From an uncultured Nitrososphaerota archaeon (GTDB lineage: Archaea; Thermoproteota; EX4484-205; JAAOZO01): 16,585 nucleotides of DNA. Below, one piece after another: positions 1 through 16,585 of the stretch (position 1 is the first letter of the stretch; each line of letters opens with the position of its first letter). The translations under genes and the position numbers were made by a program. The stretch is from contig CAYOYV010000012.1 of NCBI GenBank assembly GCA_964408285.1, positions 1 through 16,585 on the forward strand, given 5' to 3'. A model generated the notes under the pieces. The model saw only the letters and a list, made by a program, of their open reading frames with translations, was not told the origin of the DNA and made no database searches.

Positions 1-2
1 GC

Positions 3-350
3 GCGGACTTCCAGACCTTGGCGAGGAAATCCTCCCTTGAAAGAATAGGCCTGCCTGTGGGGCAAATGACTCAGTTCATCGAATCAGCAGGAGAACTGAT
101 CAAGAGATACGACCCCCTTTACAATGTCCAACGCTTTCGATCCATACCGCTTCTGCTGCTGAATGGAGAACTTGACGACCTGATACCCTTAGCGTGTGCC
201 CAGTCGCTCTATGAAGCTTTGAAGCCACAGTACCAAGCCACTCCCGAGAAGCTAAAAATGAAAGTCTATCCGGGAGTTGGACACCAATACACGCATGAGA
301 TGGAAGATGACGCAGTCGACTGGCTAAAGCGATATCTCCTTCTGCGATGA
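3..350 (+). CDS. Alpha/beta hydrolase (esterase/S9-like), C-terminal part; 5' end lies outside the window
   Basis: The frame is open from the window edge. PLLLLNGELDDLIP (catalytic Asp strand) and YPGVGH (catalytic His) are typical of alpha/beta hydrolase C-termini. The nucleophile motif is not in the window. Confidence 0.8.
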   Translation, partial: ADFQTLARKSSLERIGLPVGQMTQFIESAGELIKRYDPLYNVQRFRSIPLLLLNGELDDLIPLACAQSLYEALKPQYQATPEKLKMKVYPGVGHQYTHEMEDDAVDWLKRYLLLR

Positions 351-428
351 ACGGATCTCAACCGTCAGATCGCGCATTGAAAAGAGTCATGGAGTCTAGG
401 AACACATGTCCTGGTCGCGCGCGATAAC

Positions 429-1226
429 TTAGAACGCATTCAATATTTCTCGGAAATCCTCTTGGCTCAATCTCCAGCCCACGGCACCGACGTTTTCTTC
501 AACGTGTTCTAACCTGGAGGCCTTTGGAATAGGGACCACCGGCTCGATACAGATGAGCCAATTGAGTGCTACTTGAATCGCAGTCTTGCCATATTTCATG
601 CCGATTTTTTTGACCAGTTCGTGTTCGGATATGGCTCCCTTGTCTATTGGCGTGTATGCCATGTACATCATTCCCTCCTTCTGTGCGTAGGGTATCATCT
701 CCGAGTAGTCCTTCCTTTGCATTAGGCTGAATCTGTTCTGAATGGCTGCGATGTCAGCACTTCTGAGACAGTCCCTGGCTTCCTCTATTCCTTCAACGTC
801 AAAGTTACTCAAACCAATATGCTTGACCTTTCCTGTCTTGACAAGCTCCTCCATGGCGCGCATGGTCTCACAAACTGGAACTCCGCTCGCCGGCCAGTGA
901 AGCAGGTACAGGTCTATATATGTCCCGAGTCTCTCAGAGCTTGCCAGAGCGGCCTTTAAGACATCATCACGGTGAGCGTGGGTCGGGGAGACCTTAGTCA
1001 CTATGAACAGCCCGTCCCTCTTGAATGCCTTTATTGCCCTTCCCACGATTTCCTCGCTGTATCCATTTGCATAAGACTCCGCTGTGTCTATCAGTCTTGC
1101 GCCGATCTCAATACCCCTCCGAAGTGCTGCAACAGAAGTTTCTTCAGACGCTCTATCGATCCCATAGGTTCCGAGACCAAGGCTAGGCACGCTGACTCCC
1201 AATTTCGCGAAGAATTTAGTATCCAC
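429..1226 (-). CDS. Aldo/keto reductase
   Basis: AKR motifs LGLGTY, IDTAESY, FIVTKV, IDLYLLHWP, IGLSNF, AYTP and PIPKAS. The likely start is GTG at 1226 (MDTKFFAKLG), not the ORF-track ATG at 1253, because a TATA-like CTTATGAA overlaps 1253. Confidence 0.93.
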   Translation of the reverse strand: MDTKFFAKLGVSVPSLGLGTYGIDRASEETSVAALRRGIEIGARLIDTAESYANGYSEEIVGRAIKAFKRDGLFIVTKVSPTHAHRDDVLKAALASSERLGTYIDLYLLHWPASGVPVCETMRAMEELVKTGKVKHIGLSNFDVEGIEEARDCLRSADIAAIQNRFSLMQRKDYSEMIPYAQKEGMMYMAYTPIDKGAISEHELVKKIGMKYGKTAIQVALNWLICIEPVVPIPKASRLEHVEENVGAVGWRLSQEDFREILNAF

Positions 1227-1304
1227 GAATCTGAATATTACGAAGGGATTCATAAGTATTGAATCCGATGGAAGGCAAATTCGCGCGCGCGACCTATAAT
1301 CGGA

Positions 1305-1610
1305 TCAGATGCGCTCGATCTTGAAGACAGCGGGCCTCAGCCCATCGGGGCAACAGCCTATGCATACCGCTGGTTCTTCGTACCAGTCAAGAAAGTCTCC
1401 CTTGGACGCAAGCGTAACAGCATATGGGAATATCGCATCCCAAGCGTAGGGACAAAACCCTTCGGGCATCTTGAGTCCTTCCTCGACATTGACAACTTGG
1501 TCATCCTTGAAGACAGGGCAAGGGCCACTGTAGGTCGCCTTCACTGGCGGTTCTCGAAAGACCTCCTCGGGTTTGAATCTCTTGAGAACTGTGATCCTTA
1601 GCCTACTCAT
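1305..1610 (-). CDS. TIGR04076-family Cys-rich small protein
   Basis: Pattern ITV...GPCP.F..G/DQ...P.GFCP.AW..I.P...CCPDGLRP.VFKIERI. ATG at 1610 lies 5 nt after a GAGGTGA SD (1616-1622). Confidence 0.82.
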   Translation of the reverse strand: MSRLRITVLKRFKPEEVFREPPVKATYSGPCPVFKDDQVVNVEEGLKMPEGFCPYAWDAIFPYAVTLASKGDFLDWYEEPAVCIGCCPDGLRPAVFKIERI

Positions 1611-1649
1611 TCGCTTCACCTCTAGACAAGCTCAGAATAGGAGTTGTTG

Positions 1650-1657
1650 TTATTAAA
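1650..1657 (-). promoter_or_regulatory. Putative archaeal TATA box (TTTAATAA) for the TIGR04076 gene
   Basis: Consensus-like TATA ~40 nt upstream of the ATG, followed by the SD. Confidence 0.55.
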
Positions 1658-1697
1658 CCCTGATTAAACTGGATCGTGGGTCCTCTCTCCAACGTGC

Positions 1698-4091
1698 CTA
1701 GAGACTCACTCTAATCCTTGTCCTGCGTTCGGGTGTTATCCCCTCAAGAGTCAAGCTGCCCTGCCCATAACTCCACTTAGCTCCTGTGACTCTTTTCGGT
1801 TTCACCACATTCATCAGTTTCACATTCCACGTCTTCTTCGACGGTCCTAACGTTACCTCTAAGTTCCCTTTGCTCTTTGTGAAGGAGATCGAGCATGCCT
1901 CTCCGTCGAAAGAGTATCTGAAGGTCCCCCGGTTCTTGGGGTAGATCATAGCAGTGATTTCTCTGAAGGGTTTCTCGCCGACATATTGCACGGGCTCAGT
2001 GATGGGGATTATCGCATCTTCTCGTATCCAGAGCGGGATGCTCGAGAGGGACACCTTCTGCCTAATCCAAACTCTCCCGCTCAACTCTTTCCTAGGTCTC
2101 CAGAAATCTGCCCACCAACCGCCAGGAAGATAATATGAAACCTCTCCCCCCTCACTTAACACGGGGATGACCATAAGGCCTTTGCCGAGCATGTACTGGC
2201 TGTCTATTCTCCAAGTTGTCGGGTCATTCTGGAACTCCAAGACCATTGGCCTCACCATTGGAACACAATCGTCGCAGGACCGGACAGCCAAAGAGCACAA
2301 ATAGGGAATTAGGGAATATCTGAGCTCGTCAAACTTCTTGAATATCTTGAGGGCTTCTTCTCCGTACTCCCAAGGCTCTCTGGGCGGCGATCCATGGGCG
2401 CGCGAAAGGGGACCCAGCAGCCCCCACTGTGCCCATCTGACATATAGTTCGGGGGTAGGTCTATCTCCTTGGAAGCCCCCAATGTCGTGGCTCCAGAAAG
2501 GTACTCCTGACATTGAGTAACTTAACACACCCCATAGCGTGGCTGCCATGTGCTTGTAAGTGGAGTGAGAATCCCCTGCCCACTGGGCCGGGTAAGCTTG
2601 TATCCCCGCGTACCCTGGCCTGCCCCACACTAGACCTTCGCCATAGAAATCCCTGACAGCTTCGAATACCGTGGACGAATATTCCACCGCATATGCGTTG
2701 TGCGCCTCAAGGCCGGTACGGCCATCATAGAAGGCTGCTTCCTCTGGTATGGCCTCCCCCATGTCGGCTTTGAAGACCCTCACTCCCTCTTCCATGCGTC
2801 TCTTGAGTATGGCCTTATACCACTCTCTAGCCTGCGGGTGGGTGAAGTCAACTATTCCACAAGAGCTATGTACAAAATCAACTATATCGACGGCTTCTCC
2901 ATTCTTTTTCTTCAGGAGATATCCCCTTTCAACGGCCTCCCTGTAGAGTTCTGTCTCCTTGGGAATGTAGGGCTGCATCCAAAGGGAAACCTTGAAGCCC
3001 ATGTCAGAAAGCTCTTTGAGCATTTCTCTTGGATTCGGAAAGGCGTCAGTATTCCATTCTAAGTCGCAATAGTGATGCGGCCTTAACCATGAGGGATCTA
3101 TGTGAATGACATCACATGGGATTCTTCTCCGCCTTAGCTCACGAGCTACGTTCATTACCTGCTCTCTCGACTTATACTCTGCCCTTGATTGCCAGAAACC
3201 GAAACTCCAGAGTGGTGGAAGCCTAGGTCTGCCGGTGATACCCATATATGTGGAGATTACTTCCTTGAGGCTAGATCCAAGTATCACAATGTACTCCAGT
3301 TTCGGAGACCACGCTTCAAAAGACAGGCTTGTCGAGGAATACCCCGAGCCCACCTCAAAAACGATCTTCCCACCAAAGTTGACGAATACTCCATAGTTAC
3401 GCGTAGAGGCGTAGAAGGGGATGCACTTGTAGGATCTATCACCTCCTGTCAATGTGGCGTCGCTATTCCATAACAGGATTGCCTGCCCCCTTTTGTCCAG
3501 TGGCGTGAACTTCTCGCCAAAGCCATAGATTGCCTCGTCGGGCTCAAGGCCAAAGCTCTCCACCAGATGTAAATCCTCTCCGACCTTCTTGAATGAAAGC
3601 GGAAAGACAGGAAAGTATGTTCGCTTAAGACCCTCGCCATATTCTTCGAGGAGCACTCTATCGTTCTTGTCTAGGAACCTTAGGTTCCAGGGTTCTGAAT
3701 GAACTTCCACCCTAGCTCTCTCAGAGTCAAGGATTAGCGACCCGTTTCGCTTCTCGAGTTTCACTTTCCTCGTCTCATAATTCATCGGACGATCCTCGTT
3801 AATCCTCACTAGGACAGCATTTTCACATATGAACGAGAGTTCCACGCGTAAAAAAGGACCACCGCTTGTTGTACTCGCCTTAAGTCTAAGGCTTCGTCCA
3901 TTGAAGTCCGATGACTCGATTCTACTAGGCCTGTAGTAGCTCCATCTGGTCACGTCGAATATTGGCTCAATGTCCCTCTTGTGAAGATACCTATCAAGGT
4001 AGTACTCAAACTCATTCAGTGACTTGAACGGACGTGGGGGTTTCCAGGACGTTTCTTCATCCATGTCTGTTTTCAGGCGGTTTGTTCTCAC
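1698..4091 (-). CDS. Glycoside hydrolase family 31, YicI-like alpha-xylosidase/alpha-glucosidase
   Basis: YGFGE, SYKCIPFY, PPLWSFGFW, IPCDVIHID, nucleophile motif FKADMGE, acid/base WAGD, WSHDIGGF and PELYVRWAQWG. The start is GTG 4091 or ATG 4064. Substrate is inferred. Confidence 0.92.
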   Translation of the reverse strand: MRTNRLKTDMDEETSWKPPRPFKSLNEFEYYLDRYLHKRDIEPIFDVTRWSYYRPSRIESSDFNGRSLRLKASTTSGGPFLRVELSFICENAVLVRINEDRPMNYETRKVKLEKRNGSLILDSERARVEVHSEPWNLRFLDKNDRVLLEEYGEGLKRTYFPVFPLSFKKVGEDLHLVESFGLEPDEAIYGFGEKFTPLDKRGQAILLWNSDATLTGGDRSYKCIPFYASTRNYGVFVNFGGKIVFEVGSGYSSTSLSFEAWSPKLEYIVILGSSLKEVISTYMGITGRPRLPPLWSFGFWQSRAEYKSREQVMNVARELRRRRIPCDVIHIDPSWLRPHHYCDLEWNTDAFPNPREMLKELSDMGFKVSLWMQPYIPKETELYREAVERGYLLKKKNGEAVDIVDFVHSSCGIVDFTHPQAREWYKAILKRRMEEGVRVFKADMGEAIPEEAAFYDGRTGLEAHNAYAVEYSSTVFEAVRDFYGEGLVWGRPGYAGIQAYPAQWAGDSHSTYKHMAATLWGVLSYSMSGVPFWSHDIGGFQGDRPTPELYVRWAQWGLLGPLSRAHGSPPREPWEYGEEALKIFKKFDELRYSLIPYLCSLAVRSCDDCVPMVRPMVLEFQNDPTTWRIDSQYMLGKGLMVIPVLSEGGEVSYYLPGGWWADFWRPRKELSGRVWIRQKVSLSSIPLWIREDAIIPITEPVQYVGEKPFREITAMIYPKNRGTFRYSFDGEACSISFTKSKGNLEVTLGPSKKTWNVKLMNVVKPKRVTGAKWSYGQGSLTLEGITPERRTRIRVSL

Positions 4092-4254
4092 TCACCGTCA
4101 AAAACTTTTGCTGGGTACTTCAAGAGAGAACCGCGTTCTCTATCTGGTTTGGATCACAAAAAGTATCCGATTCCCATTGAGGCAGTGTATATAGTCATCG
4201 CAATGTGGAATATGGGGGTCGCCTTGAGACCGGCCACGCGCGGGAGCACGCGAC

Positions 4255-4264
4255 AAAGTATAAG
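4255..4264 (+). promoter_or_regulatory. Putative BRE/TATA (AAAGTATAAG) for the ABC operon
   Basis: ~30 nt upstream of ATG 4293 and immediately preceded by CG-rich tracts (4237-4253). Confidence 0.5.
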
Positions 4265-4292
4265 AATTCTAGATAATCATGGCTGGCAATTC

Positions 4293-5300
4293 ATGAAAGC
4301 AAGCTCCCCTGCCCTTGAGGCTTCGGACTTGGTAAAGGTCTACAACAAGGCCGGCGCCAAGGACAAGGCCTTAGGTGTGCTTCTGCGAAGGGAAATCCCG
4401 AAGGAGGTGAAGGCATTAGATGGGGTTAGCCTTAGGGTTGAGTGGGGAGAGATCTTTGGCATTTTAGGGCCTAATGGGGCTGGCAAGACAACGCTAATCA
4501 AGATACTCACCACTGTGCTGGAACAAGCATCAGGCAAAGCTAGGGTTGCTGGCTTCGACACGATCGAGCAAAGTCTCGAGGTCAGGACGAGGATAGGCGT
4601 GTTGCCTGAGGAATCAGAGAGGGGATTCTATTGGAGGATGTCTGTCTGGGACAATTTGTACTTCTACGCGGTGATATATGGAATAACAAATCCGGAACGG
4701 AGGGTTCAGCAACTCATAGATATGTTCGAGCTGGAGGAACATGCTAACAAATGGTTCCAGAAGCTGTCAAAAGGCGAGAAGCAAAGGGTGGCCATTGCCA
4801 GGGCCTTGATTTCGGACGCCCCGATACTCATATTCGATGAACCGACTTCTGGCTTGGACGTTAAGACCTCGAAGGCCATGAGAACTTGGTTGAAGGAGAG
4901 GTTCGGCTCGGCAGAAAGAACGATTCTCGTGAGCTCGCATGACATGCTTCTAATCGAGGAGGTGTGTGAAAGGGTAGCGATCATGCACAAGGGCAGGATT
5001 CTGAACGTCGGTTCTCCATCTGAGATCAAATCATTAATATCAAAGAGCGAGAGAGCGAGATTTGCCGTAGAAGTGGAGCCGATGACTGACGAACTGAAGA
5101 AGAGCATCGCTGATATTGGTTGGGCTGTCAAGGAAGACTCCGGGAAGCTGATCGCCACCGCACCAGACGCAAATCCTCCTTACGATCAGATTCAGCGTAT
5201 CGTCACAATCGCATCCCAAGGAGGTCGCCTCAAGTCATTTCAGCGATTAGAGCCATCCCTTGAAGAGACGTTCATAGCCTTGACCGAAGGTGGTGCCTGA
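4293..5300 (+). CDS. ABC-2 type exporter, ATP-binding subunit
   Basis: Walker A GPNGAGKT, signature variant LSKGE, Walker B ILIFDEP, H-loop SSH and a C-terminal PSLEETF motif. The start is taken as ATG 4293 because the ORF-track extension crosses the promoter. Confidence 0.93.
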   Translation: MKASSPALEASDLVKVYNKAGAKDKALGVLLRREIPKEVKALDGVSLRVEWGEIFGILGPNGAGKTTLIKILTTVLEQASGKARVAGFDTIEQSLEVRTRIGVLPEESERGFYWRMSVWDNLYFYAVIYGITNPERRVQQLIDMFELEEHANKWFQKLSKGEKQRVAIARALISDAPILIFDEPTSGLDVKTSKAMRTWLKERFGSAERTILVSSHDMLLIEEVCERVAIMHKGRILNVGSPSEIKSLISKSERARFAVEVEPMTDELKKSIADIGWAVKEDSGKLIATAPDANPPYDQIQRIVTIASQGGRLKSFQRLEPSLEETFIALTEGGA

Positions 5301-6094
5301 TGGTGAGCCTTCGAAGCATCTATGCATTCATCTGGTTGGACCTAAAGGATTGGCTGAGCTACAGATACGAGGTATTCTTCTGGTTCCTCAACATAATAGT
5401 AGGTGCGGTCACATACGCGTACGTCGGCAGCAACATGTCTTTGACTCAATCTTTCGCCCTGTTACCCTATGGTGGCAACTTTCTTGCATTTCTTTTGGTG
5501 GGAATGGCTTTCAACGATTTCATAGTGGCTTCGCTCAACGCTCCGAGGAATGTACTGAATCCCTGGGATCTGGAGTGGAAACTCATGATGCCCTGCTCGC
5601 TACTGGATGCCATAATTGGAAGCATTTGGTTCAGGTACATGATCTCAACAATACAATTAGTGATATACTTCCTATTCGGGCTGGCATTCGGTGTCAGCTA
5701 TGATGTCAATCTTTTTGCCGCCGTTCTAGTCATGCTTTTTGGCATGGCAGCAATGTGGGGGTTTGGATTGCTGAGCGCAAGCATTCAGATAATAACAAAG
5801 AGATGGGACCCCGTTGTCTGGCTCTTCACGACAATGGGCTGGCTTCTTAGCGGAGTCTGGTTCCCAGTTCAGTTCCTTCCGGACCCATTGAGGAGCCTCT
5901 CGGCAATCATGCCCCAGACATACATCTTGGATATGCTCAGGCGTTCATTGCTGACAGCGGCGTCAATAGTCGATATATTGCCATCCCTGACGAGCTTGTT
6001 ATTGTTGGCGTTCGTAATAGATTCAATAGGAGTTCTGGCTATCAGATGGGGCCTCAGGGTTGCTAAGAGGCAAGGAACTGTGGGTTACTACTAA
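5300..6094 (+). CDS. ABC-2 type exporter, permease
   Basis: About six hydrophobic segments and an LLSGVWFPV..LP motif. It is translationally coupled to the ATPase by a TGATG overlap. Confidence 0.9.
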   Translation: MVSLRSIYAFIWLDLKDWLSYRYEVFFWFLNIIVGAVTYAYVGSNMSLTQSFALLPYGGNFLAFLLVGMAFNDFIVASLNAPRNVLNPWDLEWKLMMPCSLLDAIIGSIWFRYMISTIQLVIYFLFGLAFGVSYDVNLFAAVLVMLFGMAAMWGFGLLSASIQIITKRWDPVVWLFTTMGWLLSGVWFPVQFLPDPLRSLSAIMPQTYILDMLRRSLLTAASIVDILPSLTSLLLLAFVIDSIGVLAIRWGLRVAKRQGTVGYY

Positions 6095-6325
6095 GACCTA
6101 GCGGGCGTGGCTATGCTATACGTGCATTTCTCATAAGATTGTTCATGAATAAGGCTTTTGAGAACACTAAGCAATATAACGCTGAATATTGCGAAGGGCA
6201 ACCGTTTCAGACCGGGTAACTTGCAGCAAGTGCCGGAGAGAGATTCTGAAATCGGAGTCCGGTTTTCTTGATGGAAAATGCCTTTGTTCCCATTGCTTGA
6301 GGGTCGTTGCGGACTCTTATTCTGA

Positions 6326-6769
6326 GTGAAACGTGTTCTTAGGTTGCGCTCTAGCCTGTTTCTTTTCCTCCTTGTTCAGTCTGTTCAGAGGGCTGGTTCT
6401 CCTCGTGACTCCTATGGGCCTTATGGCCACAGCAGAATCCGGGACATTGCGTCAGTATTAGGAGTGTGTTCGTTCCTTGGTCTACTTTCATTGGCCCTAA
6501 GCGCGGTGTTTCTTATTTCTGGAATAAAGATGCGAAATGCGAGTGATGTGAGAGGCAGGGATTATGGCCTCTTGGCTGCCAGACTGGATTACGTGCTGAT
6601 GGTGCTCTATCCCATTCTTTCGATACTAATTGCAGCCGGCGGTTATATACCGGGGAACAACCTTCCCCTATTCTACATGATTCTGGTGACCCCAGAGGCC
6701 CTCTGTAATTGTATCCTGATGTTGATTTTGCCTACTTTATCATCAGTGGAATTCGTCAAAAACAAGTAG
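6326..6769 (+). CDS. Hypothetical membrane protein (possible signal peptide plus ~3 TM helices)
   Basis: 147-aa ORF with a basic/hydrophobic N-terminus and hydrophobic stretches. No family recognised and the start is uncertain. Confidence 0.55.
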   Translation: MKRVLRLRSSLFLFLLVQSVQRAGSPRDSYGPYGHSRIRDIASVLGVCSFLGLLSLALSAVFLISGIKMRNASDVRGRDYGLLAARLDYVLMVLYPILSILIAAGGYIPGNNLPLFYMILVTPEALCNCILMLILPTLSSVEFVKNK

Positions 6770-6776
6770 CCTTTCT

Positions 6777-6810
6777 CGTGTGTAGACACGGTGGTGCGAA
6801 GACTACACCA
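6777..6810. terminator. Two short hairpins between convergent genes (possible termination signal)
   Basis: CGTGT-gtag-ACACG (6777-6790) and TGGTG-N9-CACCA (6792-6810). Confidence 0.25.
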
Positions 6811-6872
6811 TTAGGAGTTGGTTAGTTCGCGTGAGCACTGGAGATCGGAGCCGCTTCGTCTAGGAAGATCAA

Positions 6873-7223
6873 CTAATGGGCCCGTCCGCATGTGTGACAA
6901 TACCAAATTCGCAGCTCTGGGTGGTAGGTCAAGGCATCACCACAAAAAAAGCAATGAAAAGGATCACTCATATCGGATTTCGGAGAAACATTCGGCGAAT
7001 CTTTCGTCTTTGCAGAGCGAGGGCGCTTGAGTAGCCGCTCGATAGCCTCAGACAAGATAGCTAGCGTCAGACTCGCGACACCCACATAGGATCCCAAACT
7101 GGTGATCAAACCCATGCCCGGAACATCGTGCCATCCGAAGACAGACTCAAGAGTGATGGGTATTAAGACCGCTAGCAAACCCACGACCGTGAGCTTCAAA
7201 AGGTAGGAACTAATCCTATTCAA
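6873..7223 (-). CDS. Small two-TM membrane protein with a C-terminal zinc ribbon
   Basis: Two hydrophobic helices, then CFFC-x14-CHTC. The TTG start has TTTTTTAA (7252-7259) ~28 nt upstream, suggesting a leaderless transcript. Confidence 0.72.
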   Translation of the reverse strand: MNRISSYLLKLTVVGLLAVLIPITLESVFGWHDVPGMGLITSLGSYVGVASLTLAILSEAIERLLKRPRSAKTKDSPNVSPKSDMSDPFHCFFCGDALTYHPELRIWYCHTCGRAH

Positions 7224-7346
7224 AACGGCTGAGAATTCGTGGGTTCAAGAGTTAAAAAACCTTTGCGATGCGTTCCTGCGGCTTACTCGCGCACCGCACG
7301 AGAAAACCAGAAGAAACGACTTGATCTAATATTCGGAATCGTCGTC
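7216..7346. repeat. Copy A of a ~131-bp direct repeat with imperfect internal palindrome
   Basis: Hand alignment to 8768-8898 gives about 108 identities in 134 columns (~80%). Confidence 0.9.
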
Positions 7347-7354
7347 GTGGAGGT

Positions 7355-8716
7355 TCAAGCGAGCACAAGATATAAGCCGAGAGTTCTTCCTGAGTACAAT
7401 AACGTTGCTCTTAGCGTTGGCGGGGGCGTTTTGCTATCTGAAATCAAATAGATCTCTCTATTCGTCTTAAGCAAATATGGTAGGGGGCCCCCTACCATCC
7501 TAGAGTCAAACAGGTACTCAATCCAATATCTCCACTCAAATCTAGGGCTAACGACTGCACTGCCTGAAGGAATGAAGCGAGACATAGCTGAGAGGTCTTG
7601 GTATTGCAAAGGATTAAGCCTAGGTCCTATCCTGACGAATGTCGGCAATGATTGGAAGAAAAACACAAAGCCCAACAGTACTACCGAAACGACCATTTGC
7701 CACGCTGTTCTTTCGAAGAGGCTCAAAGCGTTTCCTGCAATGACGAATCCGGGAACGAAAACAACTAAGTTAAACCTCATTGCCCATTGAGGAGGCAACA
7801 TTGGAAAGGACAAACAGAGCAATGTGATTGAACTCGCAAATAATAACACGGAGTTCTCCCAGTGCCCCTTCTTGTTGTTTGTGTGAGTAAGGACGAAACC
7901 CAATGCGACTAACAGGTAGGATAGACTCCTTACGCCGATTCTGTCCTCAACATCGAAGAAAGGATGGAATTCCAGTGATTTGATAAACTGTTCAACGAAG
8001 ACGATTCCCTTTCCTATGTCAATCGTATATCCTTTTGACGAGAGGTAAAGTATAGTGCCAAGACCGAAGATTCCTGCCAAGAAGAGCAAGGAGAATCTAA
8101 GAAAGCCGGGATTCCTATTCCGAGATAACGAGGCGATTATTACTTCGGTTAACAGGAACAGAAGGGCCACACCAGTATCCAATATGTGAGTCAAGCCAGT
8201 GAGGAAAAAGGACAGAACGAAAAATACTCTCGATTCCAAACCGTGATCTCCTGTTAGAATTCTATACGAAAAGTAGATGAAAGAGAGCAGAAATGGGATA
8301 CCGATTGCGTTCTTGAGGAACTCGCCACTCATGGATATTAGACCAGGTGATAATGATGCAAAGAGACTTCCTGTCGCCGAAGCCGTGCGACTGTTTGTCA
8401 TCTTCTTTATGAGGAAATAGGCTGGGAAGACAGTTGTAGAGCATAATAGGGCCGTCCCCAATTTCACGGAGAACGTGACATCTTTGAAAATAAGTGTCAA
8501 GAGCGAAAAGAAGTAGAATGAGAAAGGTGGGTCAGGATATCTCATTCCCCAAGTCCTCAGAATGCTATCTACCTGAATGAGGTAATAGGGACCATCAATT
8601 CCATACACCAATGGAATACGGAATAGGGCCTGAGAATACGAGAGGAGTGTAATCAGGAAAAGAATACCGGCAAGCAAGATATCGGCACCCAGACGCTGTA
8701 GGAGTTTGGCCTGCAT
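7355..8716 (-). CDS. Polytopic membrane protein, GT-C-like (PMT/AglB-like) glycosyltransferase candidate
   Basis: An acidic loop motif GIDGPYY follows TM1, then YPDPP, LTH and about 11-12 TM segments, ending in a short soluble C-terminal domain. TATA CTTTAAAT is at 8746-8753. Confidence 0.65.
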   Translation of the reverse strand: MQAKLLQRLGADILLAGILFLITLLSYSQALFRIPLVYGIDGPYYLIQVDSILRTWGMRYPDPPFSFYFFSLLTLIFKDVTFSVKLGTALLCSTTVFPAYFLIKKMTNSRTASATGSLFASLSPGLISMSGEFLKNAIGIPFLLSFIYFSYRILTGDHGLESRVFFVLSFFLTGLTHILDTGVALLFLLTEVIIASLSRNRNPGFLRFSLLFLAGIFGLGTILYLSSKGYTIDIGKGIVFVEQFIKSLEFHPFFDVEDRIGVRSLSYLLVALGFVLTHTNNKKGHWENSVLLFASSITLLCLSFPMLPPQWAMRFNLVVFVPGFVIAGNALSLFERTAWQMVVSVVLLGFVFFFQSLPTFVRIGPRLNPLQYQDLSAMSRFIPSGSAVVSPRFEWRYWIEYLFDSRMVGGPLPYLLKTNREIYLISDSKTPPPTLRATLLYSGRTLGLYLVLA

Positions 8717-8745
8717 TCTCTTCCCTCTATCATCTCTGGTTTCAG

Positions 8746-8753
8746 ATTTAAAG
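8746..8753 (-). promoter_or_regulatory. Putative TATA box (CTTTAAAT) for the GT-C-like gene
   Basis: ~30 nt upstream of ATG 8716, with a (CG)4 tract 6 nt further upstream. Confidence 0.55.
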
Positions 8754-8767
8754 ACTGCACGCGCGCG

Positions 8768-8898
8768 CTATTCAAAAACGCTGAGTATTCGTAGGTTCAG
8801 GGGCAAAAACCTTGGCGGTGCATTCCTGTGGCTTAGTCGCGGACCGGTCGACGAGAAGCCAGAAGAAACAACTTCATCCAATATTCAGAATCGTTGTC
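8768..8898. repeat. Copy B of the ~131-bp direct repeat
   Basis: Shares CTATTCAAAA, GGCTTA, CCAGAAGAAAC, AATATTC and GAATCGT blocks with 7216-7346, in the same order and orientation. Confidence 0.9.
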
Positions 8899-8988
8899 AG
8901 CGGAAGCGGGCGAATCTGCTGTCACTCACCGAGATGTAGATCGGTCATCGCACCCTTATCAATCGTACAGCTCCGAAGGGCTTGAGGA

Positions 8989-9558
8989 ATGACGGAGGCG
9001 AAGGGGCTGGAATGCATTTGGGTCGCGAACACGATATTGGCCATTATCTTCTTCGTCCTTGGCCTTGTGCTTTTCTCGGGCGTTGCGCGTTCAATCGTGG
9101 GAGAGTGGCTTGCGGGCGTATTTCTGCTTGCTGGTTTTGTTCTATTGCTCTTGGGTAGAGAGGGATTTCTCATGGACTTCACTGATCCGAGTGTGAGGAG
9201 GTTCTCGATTTCGTGGGGAATTTATGGAGTTCTCTTCTCCTCAATCTGCATTTTTGCCATCATTGGAGGTAACATGACTGGGATGCCAGCACTTTTTTTC
9301 TTCCTTGTTGCTGTGGTAATGGCAGTTTCGGCCAATCTACTGATTCAAAGGAGAAAGCTTGGGTGGTTGTTGTCGCTTCTGGCTGCCGCGTTTTGGATGC
9401 TGGCCGGAGCCAGTACCGTTGTATACTCCTTCTTGGAGTCCACCAAGACTCCTGGATTCGAGATCGCGGCTGTCATTTCATTTGCCCTCTTGTTCTTGCC
9501 TGGTGTACTCATTTGTTACTATCTCACAAGACCTAACATCAGAAAGCAATTCGAATAG
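8989..9558 (+). CDS. Hypothetical membrane protein (~6 TM)
   Basis: Hydrophobic 189-aa ORF ending YYLTRPNIRKQF, a C-terminal pattern common in small archaeal membrane proteins. Confidence 0.75.
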   Translation: MTEAKGLECIWVANTILAIIFFVLGLVLFSGVARSIVGEWLAGVFLLAGFVLLLLGREGFLMDFTDPSVRRFSISWGIYGVLFSSICIFAIIGGNMTGMPALFFFLVAVVMAVSANLLIQRRKLGWLLSLLAAAFWMLAGASTVVYSFLESTKTPGFEIAAVISFALLFLPGVLICYYLTRPNIRKQFE

Positions 9559-9871
9559 AGCATCTGAGGTATTGGATGGCTCTCGCGCGACAAGTACAGC
9601 GATATTGTTTTTTGTCCTTACTCGTATCTCAGAAGCGCGTGCGCCTTCTTATGATTGGAACCGTAAAATCCTATAGGTTCCTGTCGCAATGCTTTCCTGA
9701 TAAAATAGGGAGGAGCGCGGAGGAGCATTTGGGTAGATCCCAGAAGCGGCTATGCTGATTCCGGAGGAGCGAGGTGCATTTCCGCCAAGGAACAAAGAAT
9801 CCTCACGGGAATTCGCCGCGGTATCCTCTTTGAAGTGTGAGAACGCGCGCGTTCAGGATTTCGTGCGCTAT

Positions 9872-10114
9872 TCATGCCGTCTGCGCTGTCGGAGGTGGCG
9901 TCGGCTGCGCTGATCCGATCGGCCTTTCTGGGATAACAAGCCACGCGATTATGTAGAACAGTATGCCAGCGCCACCGGCCAAGGTGAATATGATCAAGAC
10001 GAGCCTTATGATTGTCGGGTCAACGTTAATGTGCTCCCCTATGCCGCCACAGACCCCTCCGAGCATCCTATTCGTCGTGGATCTGTAGAGCCTCTTCCCT
10101 TCAGTAGAAGCCAT
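9872..10114 (-). CDS. pspC: PspC-domain protein
   Basis: KRLYRS...RMLGGVCGGIGE...DPT.IR...YIIAW.VIP is the PspC signature. TATA CTTAAAAT is at 10139-10146. Confidence 0.93.
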   Translation of the reverse strand: MASTEGKRLYRSTTNRMLGGVCGGIGEHINVDPTIIRLVLIIFTLAGGAGILFYIIAWLVIPERPIGSAQPTPPPTAQTA

Positions 10115-10256
10115 TTGTTCCAGCCTTTCGATGCCGGGATTTTAAGGATTTAGGACGCACTGTTAGTGCACGCAGTTGGATGTCTTCACGTTATCGCACG
10201 GTGAAGGATAGGTGATTGGAAGGCATATATCCCTTCAAGGATTCGCACTCGCAATC

Positions 10257-11633
10257 ATGAGCTCCTCTGCGGACAAGAGACGGGAGTCTTCCTGGGCAAG
10301 CCGGCTAGCTTACTCCGTAGGAGCGATCCCTTCTGCCTTGCCCTATAGCGCCATCGCCTCGTACTTTCTTTTTTACTACGAGCTGACTTTGGGCCTTAAC
10401 GTTCAATACTTCACCCTGCTTTGGGTGATTTATTCAATCTGGAATGCGATAAACGATCCACTTGCCGGTTACATAATGGACAGGACTAGGACTAGATGGG
10501 GGAGAAGGACTCCTCACATTCTGTTCTGGGCAATACCCTGCGGACTGCTCTTCTTCCTGATATGGTTCGTTCCCTTCAAGGATCCATTCCAGATATTCAT
10601 GTACGGCCTGTTGGTCATATGTCTCTACGATGCGGCATGGACGTTCGCCCTGGGAGCGTGGAACGCGCTCTACGCCGAAATGTATGAAACGACCGGAGAA
10701 AGGGCAAACGTCGTCATGGTGAAGGATGCCATAGCGTTTCTGTCGTCAGCTGTGGGAATGATGATCCCGCCCGTGCTCGCAGCGACCTTCGGATGGCCAG
10801 GTATGGGAGCGATAATAGGAATCACGATACCGATAACGCTGTTCATATCTCTCCTCGGCACAAAGGAGAAAGCCGAATACAGCATCGAGGAGCCGCTAGG
10901 GTTAGTTTCCGCCATCAAGAGCACTTTCGAAAATAAGCCCTTCCTGTACTCAGCTTTTCTCCTCATTATGACGGAGTACGCTTTTGGGACATTGACCATG
11001 ATTCTGCCGATATATGGCAGGTTTGTCTTGGGCCTGAAAGTGGAAGAGACTGGCTTTACGATGATAGGCGTTGTCATCGCAGTGTTACTGGGATTGCCGT
11101 TCTGGAGCTATATGTACAAGAGACTCGGGGAGAAAACAACCTTTCTCCTCACAACTGGGGTCTTCGCGGTTGGGCTCATCCCGATCTTCGTTGCCTCCGA
11201 CATGACCCAGCTGGTGTTGCTATCAATTGTGCCGGGCTTCGGCGTTTCAGGGACGTTGATGTCTGAGCCTGTCTTGAGCATTGTTATAGACTACGATGAG
11301 ACCGTGACGGGTAAGAGGCGCGAGGCAATGTACAGCGGCATCCTCACTTTCATATCTAGGCTGACCTTGGTGCTAACTGGCCTAACTCAACTCGTGGTTC
11401 AAACGACCACCGGCTTCATACCGGATGTGAATGCGGTCCAGCCAGCGGGTGCATTGATAGGTCTCAAATTGACCATCTCGCTTTTTCCGTGCCTAGCCCT
11501 GCTCCTAGGGCTGCTCGTTTTCACGCGATTCCCTTTGACGAAACAGGAAGTTTCGAAGATGAGGGCCAAGCTAGAAGAGATTCATATCGAGAAAAGGAGG
11601 AAGCTCGAGGAGACTTCTCGCCAAACCACGTGA
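10257..11633 (+). CDS. MFS transporter, glycoside-pentoside-hexuronide (MelB/GPH) family
   Basis: WNAINDPLAGYIMDRTRTRWGRR, ER in the loop after TM4, and IDYDE..TGKRREAMY motifs, with about 12 TM. The likely start is ATG 10257 (TATA-like CATATAT at 10224-10230). Confidence 0.92.
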   Translation: MSSSADKRRESSWASRLAYSVGAIPSALPYSAIASYFLFYYELTLGLNVQYFTLLWVIYSIWNAINDPLAGYIMDRTRTRWGRRTPHILFWAIPCGLLFFLIWFVPFKDPFQIFMYGLLVICLYDAAWTFALGAWNALYAEMYETTGERANVVMVKDAIAFLSSAVGMMIPPVLAATFGWPGMGAIIGITIPITLFISLLGTKEKAEYSIEEPLGLVSAIKSTFENKPFLYSAFLLIMTEYAFGTLTMILPIYGRFVLGLKVEETGFTMIGVVIAVLLGLPFWSYMYKRLGEKTTFLLTTGVFAVGLIPIFVASDMTQLVLLSIVPGFGVSGTLMSEPVLSIVIDYDETVTGKRREAMYSGILTFISRLTLVLTGLTQLVVQTTTGFIPDVNAVQPAGALIGLKLTISLFPCLALLLGLLVFTRFPLTKQEVSKMRAKLEEIHIEKRRKLEETSRQTT

Positions 11634-11752
11634 AACCTTTATCATATGGAGATGGATAAGCCCCAAGAGCGCGTACGATATCCGACAATCTATAAACAAT
11701 TTGCCTCAGCATTCACCGTTAGGAGAGGAATAATAGCTATACTACAGTCTTT

Positions 11753-12571
11753 TCATCTCGCTGCCTTTCCAAGTTGGTAGTGGAAAATACCTGACGCTTT
11801 AGCCAACGGCGGAATGTGGCGCATCCATTGATGACCCAAGCGCGGCTCCGGACGGTCGAAGTAGAACCACTCATCCAACAGGCGGATGCCGTTGGCCCAG
11901 CCTTCCAGATCTTTGCCGTGTTTCAATCCCCAGTGAAAGCGGGCCCCGATTTTGGAGAAGGCGAGTTTGAGGTTGCTCGTCCAGACCATGAACGGGTTCA
12001 CGGCATCGCAGACCAACTCGGAGCCAGGGAAACGTTCCTTCAACGTCAACACCAACGATTTGACCTGTGCTTCTTCAAAGTATTGCAAAACCCCCTCGGC
12101 CAGAAAGAGAAAAGCAGACTGACGATGGGCACTTACAGTGTTCAGCCAAGTGTTATCGAGTACAGAACAGGCCAAGAGATGATAGCGCGCCCCTTCGTCC
12201 CCTATGAGCTTTCGGCGCAGTTCGATGACATCCGGCAAGTCAAGGTCATACCATTCCGCCTTGCCGTTATCCACGCGCTCAAAACGAGTATCTAGGCCGC
12301 ATCCGATGTGGACAACGACCCCCTCCGGGTATTTTGCTAGAAAATCCCGTGCATGGCGGTCTAATTCTCTTGTACGCAGGACAATGGATACTTGGTCATC
12401 CTCTCCGAACTTGAACCTCGAGAAATCATAGTCTATCCGCTTTACCAACGCAACGGCTTTCTCGTCTCTGATCAGAGCATCGGGGCGCTGTGATTCAGTG
12501 GCTCTAAGGTAAATCGTCGTGAGCAAAGTTTCAGACACACCACTTAGTGCTTGAGAACTGATATCTGGCAC
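11753..12571 (-). CDS. Class I SAM-dependent methyltransferase, leucine-carboxyl-MTase/TcmP-like family
   Basis: GVSETLL..IY.RA.E, VVHIGCGLDTRFER, WYDLDLPDVIELRR and FLAEGVL.Y. The likely start is GTG 12571 (the ORF track extends to 12640). Confidence 0.9.
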   Translation of the reverse strand: MPDISSQALSGVSETLLTTIYLRATESQRPDALIRDEKAVALVKRIDYDFSRFKFGEDDQVSIVLRTRELDRHARDFLAKYPEGVVVHIGCGLDTRFERVDNGKAEWYDLDLPDVIELRRKLIGDEGARYHLLACSVLDNTWLNTVSAHRQSAFLFLAEGVLQYFEEAQVKSLVLTLKERFPGSELVCDAVNPFMVWTSNLKLAFSKIGARFHWGLKHGKDLEGWANGIRLLDEWFYFDRPEPRLGHQWMRHIPPLAKASGIFHYQLGKAAR

Positions 12572-12825
12572 GTTTATGATCCTTGAGATCAAAAGCGGAG
12601 CTTCCTTAAATCGATATCTTTCAGCTTTACTTTGTGTCAAATCGCCTCGATTCTTCAGTGGTTCGACCGATTGCGAAGATCATATATCGCGCGGCTTCCA
12701 AACGGGATTTCACTCTTCCTGCCTAGTGGGCCCCCCGTGCTTTTCAGAGTCCAGGCGGGAGTCTTGCGGAATTTAGCTTGGCACTAGTGTCTACCGCGAC
12801 GCCGTGTCTCAATTAGGAGATAATG

Positions 12826-12833
12826 TTTTAAAC
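12826..12833 (+). promoter_or_regulatory. Putative TATA box (TTTTAAAC) of the proBA operon
   Basis: Consensus-like TATA ~45 nt upstream of ATG 12879. Confidence 0.55.
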
Positions 12834-12878
12834 GAATGTTCATGCAGTCCGGTTCAAGTGGCTCGGTAGTTGGGTAGA

Positions 12879-13754
12879 ATGGGCACGGTAATAGTCAAGG
12901 TTGGCACAAAGGTTCTCACAAATTCCCGGGGCTGGATAAGTCCGAGCGGAATAAAGCGCATAGTTCAGCAAGTAGCCGAGAACCGGCGAAGTGCCTCCTC
13001 GTTCATAATCGTCACGTCTGGCGCCATTGCTAGCGGGCTCTCTAAGCTTGCGATAAACGCTTCTCCAGAAGATCTTTCGCTCACGATGAAGCAGGTTTGC
13101 GCGGCAATAGGGCAACCTTCCTTGATGCATCTATACAATCGTTACTTGAGCAAATGTGGGATAGAGGTCGCTCAGATCCTCCTGACAGAGGAGGATTTGG
13201 CGAACAAGCACCGATACAGGAATTTCTGGAGAACTCTTACTGCTCTTCTTAAGAAAGGAGTCATCCCCATAATAAACGAAAATGATGCCATATCTATCAA
13301 GGAGCTCGTCCCAGTTAACCCCCGTGTACCAGACTCCGTAAGATTCGGAGATAACGATAGACTCTCCGCGATAATCGCGTCTAGAGTAGGAGCGGACCTG
13401 CTCGTCATACTGACCGACGTCGACGGATTCATGATGCCAACACCAGACGGGGGTCTCAAACTGGTCAACGAGATGAAGAGGATCAATAAGAATACACTAT
13501 CCTATGCAGGTGGTTCGAGTAGGTTGGGATTAGGAGGAATGCTCTCAAAACTTCAGGCAGCCAGAATAGCATCGCGTTCCGGTGTTACAACTGTGATAGC
13601 AAATGGACACCGACGAGACATATTGACAAGAATAATGCGAGGGGAGCGAGTTGGCACCCTAATCAAGCCCGCACCAGGCAAAAGCCAAAAGAAACCTGAG
13701 AGGATAGTGGTTGATAGTTTAAGCCATGACGCTAGTAGAAGAAGAGGTCCTTGA
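12879..13754 (+). CDS. proB: Glutamate 5-kinase, without a PUA domain
   Basis: IVKVGT, VTSGAI, AAIGQ, AQILLT, PIINEND, FGDND.LSA, LTDVDG and GGM.SKL.AA motifs. Confidence 0.95.
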   Translation: MGTVIVKVGTKVLTNSRGWISPSGIKRIVQQVAENRRSASSFIIVTSGAIASGLSKLAINASPEDLSLTMKQVCAAIGQPSLMHLYNRYLSKCGIEVAQILLTEEDLANKHRYRNFWRTLTALLKKGVIPIINENDAISIKELVPVNPRVPDSVRFGDNDRLSAIIASRVGADLLVILTDVDGFMMPTPDGGLKLVNEMKRINKNTLSYAGGSSRLGLGGMLSKLQAARIASRSGVTTVIANGHRRDILTRIMRGERVGTLIKPAPGKSQKKPERIVVDSLSHDASRRRGP

Positions 13755-14982
13755 GAAAGCCAAGGCGGCCAAGGGGGCCTCCCTGAAACTTGGAGTCTCC
13801 CCCTCAACTGCGAGGAACGAGGCTCTCAGGGCCATAACAGAGGCCCTACTCCTCAACATGGATCTAATACTCACTGAGAACCAGAAAGATGTCGCCGAAC
13901 TGAAGAAGAAGGATCCCAATTCGCCGATTATTGACAGGTTACTACTGAACCGGAAGAGAATCGAAGAAACGGTCGATGGATTGCGAGAAGTCATACAACT
14001 ACCTGATGCTTTGGGCGAGATAGTGGCTGGTTGGACGACAAGGCATGGTTTGGAAATCAGGAAGGTCCGTGTCCCCTTAGGAGTAATAGCAGTGATATAT
14101 GAAGCTAGGCCGAACGTAACGATTGACATTGTAGGCTTGGCAATAAAGTCCGGCAACGCTGTCATCTTGAGAGGCGGTTCCGAAGCGATTAATTCCAACA
14201 AGGCTTTGGTTCGAGTGATAAAGGAAGCCATAAGGGGATTGATTCCCGAAGGGGCCATTCAACTCATTGAGAATACTGATAGGACGCTCGTGAACAGGTT
14301 GCTCGAGTTGTATGATTACGTGGATGTAGTCATACCCCGGGGAAGCGCCCAACTAATCAAGTTCGTCAGGGAGAACTCACGCATCCCAATAATAGAGACG
14401 GGCGCCGGGAACGTGCACATATTCGTTAACCATGATGCTGACCTCGACATGGCAACAAGGATAATCATCAACGCCAAAGTGCAGAGGCCATCCGTCTGCA
14501 ATGCGGTCAGGAAGGTCCTCGTCCATGGAAGTATCGCTCAGACCTATTTGCCTGAGTTGGTGAATGCACTTAGGAAATATCACGTCATAGTCAAGGGATG
14601 CGAAGCATGCAGAAAGATAGAACCTACGATTATGGAGGCAGCGGAAGCAGATTGGTATGAGGAATACATGGACCTCACATTGGCAGTAAAGATCGTCCCC
14701 TCTGTAGCTGAGGCGATTGATCACATAAACAAGTATGGGACCCACCATTCTGATGCAATAATAACATCCAACATCGACGACGCAAATCTCTTTGCCTCGC
14801 TGGTTGACTCATCAACGGTATATGTAAATGCCTCCACGAGATTCACTGATGGCAACCAGTTCGGCTTTGGTGCTGAGGTCGGCATAAGCACCCAGAAGCT
14901 CCATGCCAGGGGCCCAATGGGATTGAAGGAACTCACGACAACAAAGTATGTGGTGTTCGGAAATGGCCAAGTTAGGGAGTAG
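13726..14982 (+). CDS. proA: Gamma-glutamyl phosphate reductase
   Basis: VPLGVI..IYEARPNVT, KSGNA.ILRGGSEA, IPRG, catalytic SVCNA, HSDAI, NASTRFTDG and STQKLHARGP. Confidence 0.97.
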   Translation: MTLVEEEVLEKAKAAKGASLKLGVSPSTARNEALRAITEALLLNMDLILTENQKDVAELKKKDPNSPIIDRLLLNRKRIEETVDGLREVIQLPDALGEIVAGWTTRHGLEIRKVRVPLGVIAVIYEARPNVTIDIVGLAIKSGNAVILRGGSEAINSNKALVRVIKEAIRGLIPEGAIQLIENTDRTLVNRLLELYDYVDVVIPRGSAQLIKFVRENSRIPIIETGAGNVHIFVNHDADLDMATRIIINAKVQRPSVCNAVRKVLVHGSIAQTYLPELVNALRKYHVIVKGCEACRKIEPTIMEAAEADWYEEYMDLTLAVKIVPSVAEAIDHINKYGTHHSDAIITSNIDDANLFASLVDSSTVYVNASTRFTDGNQFGFGAEVGISTQKLHARGPMGLKELTTTKYVVFGNGQVRE

Positions 14983-15002
14983 GCCTTTGTTCGGGCCGGA
15001 CG

Positions 15003-15854
15003 ATGGGTCGGATATTGAATGAATCAGAATTTCTAAATGAAGCAATCAGTAAATCAAGAAAGTGGGTGGCTGGAAGAACCAGAGAAGAAGCACTAGAAGC
15101 GGTTTCTGAGCTGAATAGAGGCGGCATCATAGCGACGGTTAGTTTCCTTGGAGAAGATCTGAAGGATTTACCTCGAATTCAGAGCCATCTCTCAGAATAC
15201 AGGTCACTAATACAGAGCATTTCTGCGAGCAATCTCAAGGCCAACATATCGGTGAAACCATCTACCATGGGCATTTCCCTGCGGCCGAGCCTATTCCTAC
15301 AAAATCTTGAGCACTTGCTCAAGGACCTTTCGAAGAGCGCATCGATTGAACTCGTAGTGGATTCGGAGGGACAAAGTTTGGTTTCTAGTGCTTACGACGA
15401 GGCGGTGAAACTCCTGAGGTTAGGCTATGAATTCAGAGTAACAGTCGCATGTAGATTCTACCCCGTCATAAAGGCCAAATTGGAGGAAATCGTAGATTCA
15501 GGGGGTAGGATTAGGATCACAAGGGGGGCCTATGAGGGAGGAGCAGGACTGCCATTTGTTAACTTCATTGAAGATATTCTCGAGCTACAACGAAGGACTA
15601 GGGATCCGATTTTGGCAACGAATAGTGTGCGAGTGATCAACTCACTCGAAGAACACGGCGTTTTGGAGGGATTCAGCGGATTTGAGACTCTATTGGGTAA
15701 GCATGTTGAGCTTGAACGTTACCTGAAGAGCAGGCGCTTGAGGACCTTGAGGTACATCCCTTACGGGGATAGCTGGATCGATTACTGTGCTAGGAGGGAG
15801 AAGTGGTTCTCCGAGAACGCCGGTGAGTTGAAGTCCATATTACTTCGAAGATGA
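15003..15854 (+). CDS. Divergent monofunctional proline dehydrogenase-fold protein
   Basis: WVAG.T.EEAL, FLGE, ISVK, DSE, R.TRGAY, ATNS and YIPYG..W..Y..RR are collinear with ProDH (PutB-type) motifs, several of them degenerate. Confidence 0.8.
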   Translation: MGRILNESEFLNEAISKSRKWVAGRTREEALEAVSELNRGGIIATVSFLGEDLKDLPRIQSHLSEYRSLIQSISASNLKANISVKPSTMGISLRPSLFLQNLEHLLKDLSKSASIELVVDSEGQSLVSSAYDEAVKLLRLGYEFRVTVACRFYPVIKAKLEEIVDSGGRIRITRGAYEGGAGLPFVNFIEDILELQRRTRDPILATNSVRVINSLEEHGVLEGFSGFETLLGKHVELERYLKSRRLRTLRYIPYGDSWIDYCARREKWFSENAGELKSILLRR

Positions 15855-15905
15855 GAATAGCGGACTCCCAAGCGAGAAGCTGGACTAAGTCAACCTAGCG
15901 CGATA

Positions 15906-16583: not shown

Positions 16584-16585
16584 TC

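Follow-up and report, generated by a model that had tools for sequence, protein, structure and literature searches.

Two kinds of described locus come closest to the structure reported here. The bacterial 'microdiversity' loci described by Touzain et al. (2010, PMC2884548) are segments defined by their presence or absence among strains, and most of the repeats that flank them are shorter than 30 base pairs (bp). Putative mobile promoters are sequences that are at least 80% identical across 50 nucleotides (nt) or more and that lie upstream of unrelated genes (Nijveen, Matus-Garcia and van Passel 2012, PMC3575422). Here, we focus on a 131-nt direct repeat in the genome of an uncultured Thermoproteota archaeon. 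The two copies of the repeat, A and B, bracket a single gene that encodes a GT-C-fold glycosyltransferase. The whole stretch of DNA that was analysed, referred to as the window, is 16,585 nt long (contig CAYOYV010000012.1 of assembly GCA_964408285.1, positions 1 to 16,585). In the reading that we favour, and to which we give about an even chance, the repeat arose when one insertion, long ago, duplicated its target, and it persists as a fixed scar.

The host genome assembly comprises 1.82 Mb in 46 contigs and is 93.7% complete; the sequencing runs are labelled sediment. Relatives were searched for in 40 other genomes, 5 of them from the same family, and in 25 other genomes of the class. A large protein collection gave 39 matches to the GT-C protein, from sources labelled Bathyarchaeia or Thermoproteota. 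Independent samples of the locus were provided by four public runs (X2, X5, X8, and X9), compared as contigs over positions 5000–11000 of the window. A metagenome contig from the Joint Genome Institute (JGI), L027, belongs to the same species and is 99.55% identical to the window over 8,634 nt.

The direct repeat

The features of the locus are as follows.

7216 to 7346, no strand assigned: repeat copy A, intergenic, between the stop codon of the GT-C gene and the zinc-ribbon gene
8768 to 8898, no strand assigned: repeat copy B, upstream of the GT-C promoter
7347 to 8767, minus strand: unit Y, 1,421 bp, composed of 8 nt, the GT-C open reading frame (ORF), and 51 nt upstream of it that carry the gene's own TATA box and the (CG)4 tract
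7355 to 8716, minus strand: gene for P0002, a GT-C-fold glycosyltransferase (PMT_2 / GT39-like) of 453 amino acids
8746 to 8753, minus strand: TATA box of the GT-C gene, CTTTAAAT, at −37 to −30 of the ATG and outside the repeat
8760 to 8767, no strand assigned: (CG)4 tract, CGCGCGCG, where unit Y meets copy B; the genome has 81 tracts of this type
6873 to 7223, minus strand: gene for P0001, a 116-amino-acid membrane protein with a C-terminal zinc ribbon, whose promoter and start codon lie in copy A
8989 to 9558, plus strand: gene for P0003, a 189-amino-acid membrane protein, divergent, the other neighbour of the presumed empty site

A search for direct repeats returned three in-register blocks (D1–D3) with a spacing of 1550–1552, which together make up copies A and B. 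When aligned with MAFFT, the copies are identical in 106 of 133 columns (79.7%); they differ by 23 mismatches (14 transitions and 9 transversions) and two 2-nt indels. By blastn, the identity is 81.3% over 134 columns, with an E value of 8.5e-28 in a search of the whole genome. The edges of the repeat are sharp: the local alignment scores of the DNA outside it are reached by 144 and 283 of 300 shuffles. The genome contains exactly two copies by blastn, and among the 40 relatives the repeat DNA gave one 22-nt match at chance level and nothing more. A 28-nt degenerate pattern of the repeat matched nothing in a genome-contig collection or in a viral-contig collection.

The differences between the copies are scattered evenly across the 133 columns, with no switch from an identical to a diverged part. 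The longest identical run is 11 nt, compared with 16.2 nt expected from random scatter; in only 9.8% of shuffles is the longest run this short or shorter. The repeat therefore has no conserved core of the kind that an att site or an operator would leave. Nor was an inverted-repeat pair found at the ends of the repeat or at those of the unit (7347–8767). The repeat has no match in Rfam at E ≤ 1 and holds no tRNA, and its predicted fold energies are at the level of shuffled sequences on both strands (z scores −0.11, −0.88, +0.49, and −0.18). Stop codons interrupt 9 of the 12 frame-and-copy readings and no frame is open in both copies. The three open readings (+2 of copy A, +1 of copy B, and −1 of copy A) are mismatched between the copies, and the two 2-nt indels break the reading frame. 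There is thus no evidence that the repeat itself is either a gene or an element.

An assembly artefact was considered as the source of the repeat and rejected. Contigs of run X2 span 6661–7538 and 7509–8969 with no differences from the window, and contigs of run X5 span 6318–7431 and 8544–8969 with one difference each; in both runs, each copy is bridged into its unique flank. Both copies are also present in L027. True artefacts of assembly in these data look otherwise, namely exact 55-nt repeats 155 nt apart. One such pair, a trace of the k=55 assembly graph, lies at 16531–16585 of the window and at C12:16686–16740 of the contig. Overlaps of 55 nt connect many contig ends and are likewise traces of k=55 assembly, not biology.

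Promoter geometry

Across the whole genome (843 upstream regions), TATA-like hexamers peak at −40 to −26 of the predicted start codons. The three 5-nt bins of the peak hold 75, 95, and 76 hexamers, compared with approximately 10–15 per bin elsewhere. Most transcripts are therefore expected to be leaderless or to have a very short leader. Copy A contains TTAAAAAA at 7252–7259, which reads TTTTTTAA on the minus strand and forms a TATA box at −36 to −29 of the TTG start at 7223. The TTG start codon of the zinc-ribbon gene (7221–7223) and the first 8 coding bases also lie in copy A. At its other end (7346), copy A stops 8 nt from the stop codon of the GT-C gene at 7355–7357, and a T-rich tract on the minus strand (7300–7317) lies within copy A behind that stop. 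Since it carries the promoter and start of the zinc-ribbon gene together with the T-rich tract, copy A is a working intergenic region.

Copy B is differently placed. It stops 52 nt upstream of the GT-C ATG, whereas copy A overlaps the start codon of its gene. Its equivalent of the TATA box is degraded to GGCAAAAA (8802–8809) and is approximately 90 nt from the GT-C ATG, and the start-like CTATTCAA is retained. The GT-C gene has its own TATA box within unit Y, and both this box and that of copy A fall in the genome-wide peak. Judged by its sequence, copy B has no evident job and is probably a relic.

Much of this layout had been proposed in the initial annotation, which was made from the sequence alone, and it stands. 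The direct repeats of about 80% identity are borne out by the alignments, and the single enclosed gene with its own TATA box by a Pfam match (see below) and by the box at 8746–8753. The coordinates agree that copy A ends 8 nt from the stop codon and holds the TATA box and the TTG start at 7223, and that copy B has kept the start-like sequence, has lost the TATA box, and abuts CGCGCGCG at 8760–8767. The statement that no recombinase is encoded in the window also holds: 16 ORFs of the window were scanned against Pfam and none matched a recombinase family.

The enclosed glycosyltransferase

P0002 is, by profile and by fold, predicted to be a GT-C glycosyltransferase. It matches Pfam family PF13231 (PMT_2) with 40.9 bits (cut-off 26.1) and an E value of 3.1e-10, and its homologues in the database carry PF13231 and/or PF10131. 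The AlphaFold model has a mean predicted local distance difference test (pLDDT) score of 89.0 and a predicted template modelling (pTM) score of 0.88. In a Foldseek search with this model, all 27 matches at E ≤ 0.001 were GT-C enzymes (STT3, AglB, PglB, ALG12, DPY19, ArnT, and ALG9). The best matches were STT3/AglB/PglB, ALG12, DPY19, and ArnT. E values go down to 1.2e-7, template modelling (TM) scores are 0.55–0.66 (query-normalised), and identities to solved structures are 10–15% in the structural alignments. A sequence comparison with the PDB gave nothing at E ≤ 1. A conserved acidic residue in the first extracytoplasmic loop is a feature of the GT-C superfamily. In P0002, D41 (in the motif YGIDG of the first loop) and D62 are invariant in all 19 aligned homologues.

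An apparent likeness between the N-terminal membrane helices of P0001 and P0002 was noticed and then given up: this helix is one that GT-C proteins have by themselves, and past the repeat the DNA shows no similarity.

Composition and distribution of the enclosed gene

The guanine plus cytosine (GC) content of unit Y is 45.1%, compared with 49.4% for the genome, a value at the 0.5th percentile among 1258 equally long windows of the genome. In trinucleotide distance it ranks at the 96th percentile. At third codon positions (GC3) it has 50% GC, compared with 50–64% in eight other genes of the window, among which the amino-acid kinase gene alone is as low (50.2%). Other membrane-protein genes are less extreme in GC content than unit Y, both the GT-C paralogue described below (47.8%) and those of the window (47.9–51.4%).

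The distribution of homologues is patchy. Only 4 of the 40 other genomes have one at E ≤ 1e-5, and none of the five same-family genomes does. The best homologue in the 40 genomes is 52% identical and comes from another family. The 39 database matches include none between 51% and 100% identity, and no relatives of the protein were found in the viral-contig collection. The foreign composition together with the patchy homologues indicates that the enclosed gene was probably acquired.

The host has a second GT-C gene, a paralogue with 39% identity at C6:41837–43141 (L012:1432–2823), which adjoins genes for ribosomal proteins. The five same-family genomes contain no match to either of the two paralogues. 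The loci of the GT-C homologues (G012, G006, and G030) and of the host's own paralogue show no synteny with the locus and no comparable flanking repeats. When the flanks of these loci were compared with the repeat, the lowest results were 8 and 12 of 300 shuffles, which are not significant over 10 tests.

Origin of the arrangement

The favoured reading is that of a single insertion into intergenic DNA. Unit Y, consisting of the GT-C ORF, its own TATA box, and the (CG)4 tract, would have inserted into the DNA that separates two divergent genes, the zinc-ribbon gene (minus strand) and the 8989 gene (plus strand). The insertion would have left 131 bp of the intergenic target on both sides of the insert. 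The duplicated piece would comprise the zinc-ribbon TATA box, the TTG start, and the first 8 coding bases. Because it carries the promoter, the start codon, and the first 8 coding bases, the zinc-ribbon gene would have stayed intact. The zinc-ribbon gene would still draw its promoter and start from copy A, and the T-rich tract behind the GT-C stop would also come from this copy. Copy B would be a leftover that lost its TATA box and drifted, the copies diverging to about 80% identity while the arrangement became fixed. The sequence of events contains three steps that we infer: that the event was an insertion here and not a loss in other lineages, that one and the same event produced the duplication, and that copy B is without function.

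Several points weigh against this reading. Among the genomes searched, no outgroup is close enough to show an empty site or the polarity of the changes in the two copies. A target duplication of 131 bp is unusually long. The divergence of about 20% between the copies implies a long time, yet the composition of the insert is still extreme; this mismatch of age and composition fits at least as well with a copy B that arrived already diverged from a donor. Part of the low GC content is explained by membrane-protein bias, the paralogue having 47.8% and the ABC-2 permease 47.9%. Finally, copy B has been kept at full length with just two 2-nt indels, so that it could be under some constraint.

In a second explanation, the 131-nt segment is a cis-regulatory module and both copies were kept for this reason. 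Either it would be a reused promoter-upstream region that co-regulates the zinc-ribbon and GT-C genes, or copy B would maintain, after the insertion, the upstream context native to the divergent 8989 gene. We regard this as unlikely. In its favour, both copies are upstream of minus-strand genes, copy B is preserved over its whole length, and, by the coordinates, the duplication lets both divergent neighbours retain their original upstream DNA. Similar upstream sequences before unrelated genes are common in prokaryotes, with more than 4000 families (PMC3575422). The details of the repeat fit a module poorly. It contains no conserved block, the longest identical run of 11 nt being shorter than the 16 nt expected, and the distance to the gene differs, since copy A lies over the start codon and copy B 52 nt upstream of the ATG. 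Copy B has only a degraded TATA box, and the one that belongs to the GT-C gene stands at the canonical place. No further copy of the segment, and no motif shared with it, was found elsewhere in the genome.

A Campbell-type or homology-assisted integration appears improbable as well. Here, a small circle or fragment from a related organism would have brought in the GT-C gene along with a homologue, already diverged, of the 131-nt segment; the copies would have been about 20% different at the outset, and the event may be of fairly recent date. Such an integration accounts for the sharp-edged direct repeats and for an insert composition that is still at the 0.5th percentile despite the 20% divergence of the copies. 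A 3.8-kb block without differences from L027 (5166–8969) would fit a segment that spread recently. For bacteria, there are documented cases of homology-assisted illegitimate integration (PMC2884548). The integration would need a donor with the gene beside the homologous region, however, and none was found in the 40 relatives or in the genome- and viral-contig collections; the nearest protein homologue is just 51–52% identical. The repeat also lacks a chimeric pattern, its differences being even throughout. Recombination at 80% identity with identical runs of 11 nt or less is inefficient, which argues against this route too.

A broader proposition can be built on the insertion reading: that the lineage takes up single promoter-plus-ORF units without a recombinase. 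Units would enter divergent intergenic DNA, perhaps at (CG)n tracts, with a target duplication of about 130 bp that regenerates the promoter and start of the neighbour, and the duplicate would be a potential exit route. We consider this generalisation very unlikely to hold.

State of the locus in the population

The initial annotation had gone further than the layout and proposed that the gene was gained by recombination at the repeat, that recombination between the copies would excise the unit, and that surface glycosylation could vary as a result. The gain itself is supported by the foreign composition and the patchy homologues. The part in which the repeat acts as a recombination element is not, given identical runs of at most 11 nt, two copies only, and no match to PF00589. 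The suggested blastn comparison of the repeat with the host genome and with relatives brought to light no copy beyond the two and, in the 40 relatives, only the chance-level match.

None of the four runs, compared as contigs, shows a joint between the copies or a loose end at the borders of the repeat. The only joint and loose ends in 5000–11000 are at 5808, 6117–6165, 6391, and 8570–8615. The filled arrangement is found in the window, in L027, and in the X2 and X5 contigs that bridge the copies. In runs X8 and X9, parts of the locus are without cover, and these gaps are uninformative on the empty site. The breaks of the X2 and X5 contigs at 8969/8971 fall on a G/A polymorphism at 8970 and are equally uninformative in this respect. 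Among recombinases, the PF00589 integrase family has no match in the 93.7%-complete genome, compared with matches in 14 of 14 control genomes (four archaea included); serine recombinases were not searched for genome-wide. An Xer-type recombinase of the host may sit in the unassembled part or be too divergent for PF00589.

An excisable cassette that is still active, in which recombination between the copies would take out and put back the 1.55-kb unit in some members of the population and vary surface glycosylation, is accordingly hard to credit. The geometry of the direct repeat would allow the unit to be deleted cleanly, with one functional promoter copy left behind. Variable regions typically carry genes for glycosyltransferases, and contigs hide rare variants, so that a deletion at low frequency could be missed. 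Against these considerations stand the absence of any such joint or loose end in the four runs, the filled form in L027 and the window, the copies' identity of about 80% in runs of at most 11 nt, and the lack of a recombinase family in the 16 window ORFs and of PF00589 in the genome. No other cargo occurs at the element and no other copy of it in the genome. The proposed excision today and the variable surface glycosylation therefore both remain unsupported: every independent sample examined has the filled form, and no junction crosses the unit. The arrangement is best read as fixed in the population.

The differences between the window and L027 are unevenly distributed. There are none in 5166–8969, 16 in 4698–5165 (inside the gene for an ATP-binding cassette (ABC) ATPase), and 23 in 8970–13181. 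The block 5166–8969, which holds the complete structure, is thus the same throughout these samples. The uneven placing of the 39 differences in 4698–13181 suggests recombination tracts or a recently spread block. At 5033–5165, the window carries the rarer form, because all four runs share those variants.

As to the last explanation, it is very unlikely that the repeat is a small gene, present twice, whose product is a structured RNA or a peptide: RNAalifold does predict a central hairpin common to both copies on the minus strand, in which one pair is compensatory and two one-sided changes preserve the pairing (by eye, and with a 2-nt indel placed otherwise than in the RNAalifold alignment, the stem CUCG/CGAG of copy A becomes GUCG/CGAC in copy B), but only 1 of 30 predicted pairs is compensatory in a comparison of just two sequences, Rfam and the fold energies give no sign of an RNA, the stops and frame-shifting indels speak against a peptide, and no homologue was found in the other genomes searched.

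Neighbouring genes and other observations

P0001 has no Pfam match and is unrelated to the PMT_2 protein P0002. Weak zinc-ribbon relatives occur in 12 of the 40 related genomes without synteny, for example a 146-amino-acid protein in L022. When metagenomes were scanned with P0001, the matches were L027, a contig of the same species, and two unrelated loci. For P0003, no homologue was found among the 40 relatives or the 25 further genomes of the class. In the relatives searched, other genera of the host family share neither the repeat nor the neighbour genes. The MFS_2 sugar transporter gene of the window (10212–11633) has orthologues with 78% and 75% identity in two sister-genus genomes, and the window neighbours of this gene adjoin neither of them. 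The relatives of the ABC-2 permease in the sister genus are only 26–31% identical.

A strain-variable junction may lie behind the ABC transporter operon, at 6129–6165 / 6354–6391. Approximately 36 nt (6129–6164) are common to contigs of X2, X5, and X9, with unrelated sequence on either side. In the same region, one X2 contig jumps 188 nt, from 6165 to 6354. No second copy of the 6129–6165 stretch was found in the host's own genome.

Tracts of (CG)4 or longer are concentrated between genes. Of the 81 in the genome, 44 fall in the 9% that is outside ORFs of at least 100 amino acids (binomial P 5e-25). The hexamer CGCGCG occurs 361 times, compared with 206 expected. Tracts that adjoin the 3' ends of genes sit close to them (median 32 nt, with 17 of 40 within 20 nt). 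The window has four tracts of this kind.

416 to 423: (CG)4 or longer
1282 to 1291: (CG)4 or longer
8760 to 8767: the tract where unit Y and copy B meet
9844 to 9851: (CG)4 or longer

An aldo/keto reductase gene (429–1253, minus strand) lies between inverted CG-tract palindromes, GGTCGCGCGCGA (413–424) and TCGCGCGCGCGACC (1281–1294).

A small direct repeat at C2:194361–194475 / 195876–195986 was considered as a second cassette of the same type and rejected, as it is part of a three-copy remnant of a duplicated small-gene module. The surrounding region (C2:190400–196500, corresponding to L042:1472–7432) contains two copies of a gene for a 119-amino-acid retropepsin-like aspartyl protease with 84–87% DNA identity. 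It also contains an element of 67–115 nt in three copies, with a PIN-domain gene between copies two and three, and seven (CG)4 tracts within 9 kb.

Comparison with known systems

The locus resembles the 'microdiversity' loci (PMC2884548) in that foreign-looking DNA with a membrane-protein gene lies between direct repeats, in an intergenic region and without a known mobile element. It differs from them in the length of the repeats (131 nt at about 80% identity), in that no strain without the segment has been seen, and in its archaeal host.

Like the putative mobile promoters, the copies are 81.3% identical over 134 columns, non-coding, and associated with unrelated genes, with no link to a mobile element or to Rfam. 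In contrast to them, the copies are 1.55 kb apart and bracket one gene, and copy B has no TATA box, its gene having a promoter of its own. Within positions −150 to −50 of both genes, the shared stretch is only 42 nt, and for copy A this range (7273–7373) enters the GT-C ORF (from 7355); the pair is thus one that the filter of PMC3575422 would discard.

A single-gene unit between direct repeats, removable in principle, also recalls attL/attR elements and integron cassettes. Unlike integrase-type elements, the locus has no integrase that could be found, no tRNA target, and no identical core. Unlike integron cassettes, its gene has its own TATA box (−37 to −30), and neither an attC-like fold nor an integrase was found. 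The repeat carries the promoter and start codon of the neighbour, so it appears to be target DNA and not the end of an element. From miniature inverted-repeat transposable elements (MITEs) and repetitive extragenic palindromic (REP)-like repeats, it is set apart by its two copies only and by the lack of terminal inverted repeats.

The enclosed protein is like the GT-C enzymes (STT3/AglB/PglB, ArnT, PMT, ALG, and DPY19) in its PMT_2 match, its superposing model, and its invariant first-loop aspartate. Unlike known members, it has just 453 amino acids and no large soluble domain.

The locus opens no new mechanism and gives no sign of variation in glycosylation within the population. If the insertion reading is true, it would be a clean, base-delimited example of the gain of an envelope glycosyltransferase by an uncultured sediment archaeon. 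It would then also be a worked case of gain without a recognisable mobile element, in which the promoter of the neighbour was rescued by duplication. Of wider use for the annotation of the lineage may be the genome-wide position of the TATA box and the intergenic enrichment of tracts of (CG)4 or longer. Compared with the systems above, the locus thus adds a further example of a kind of event that is already known, from an archaeal lineage that has been little studied.

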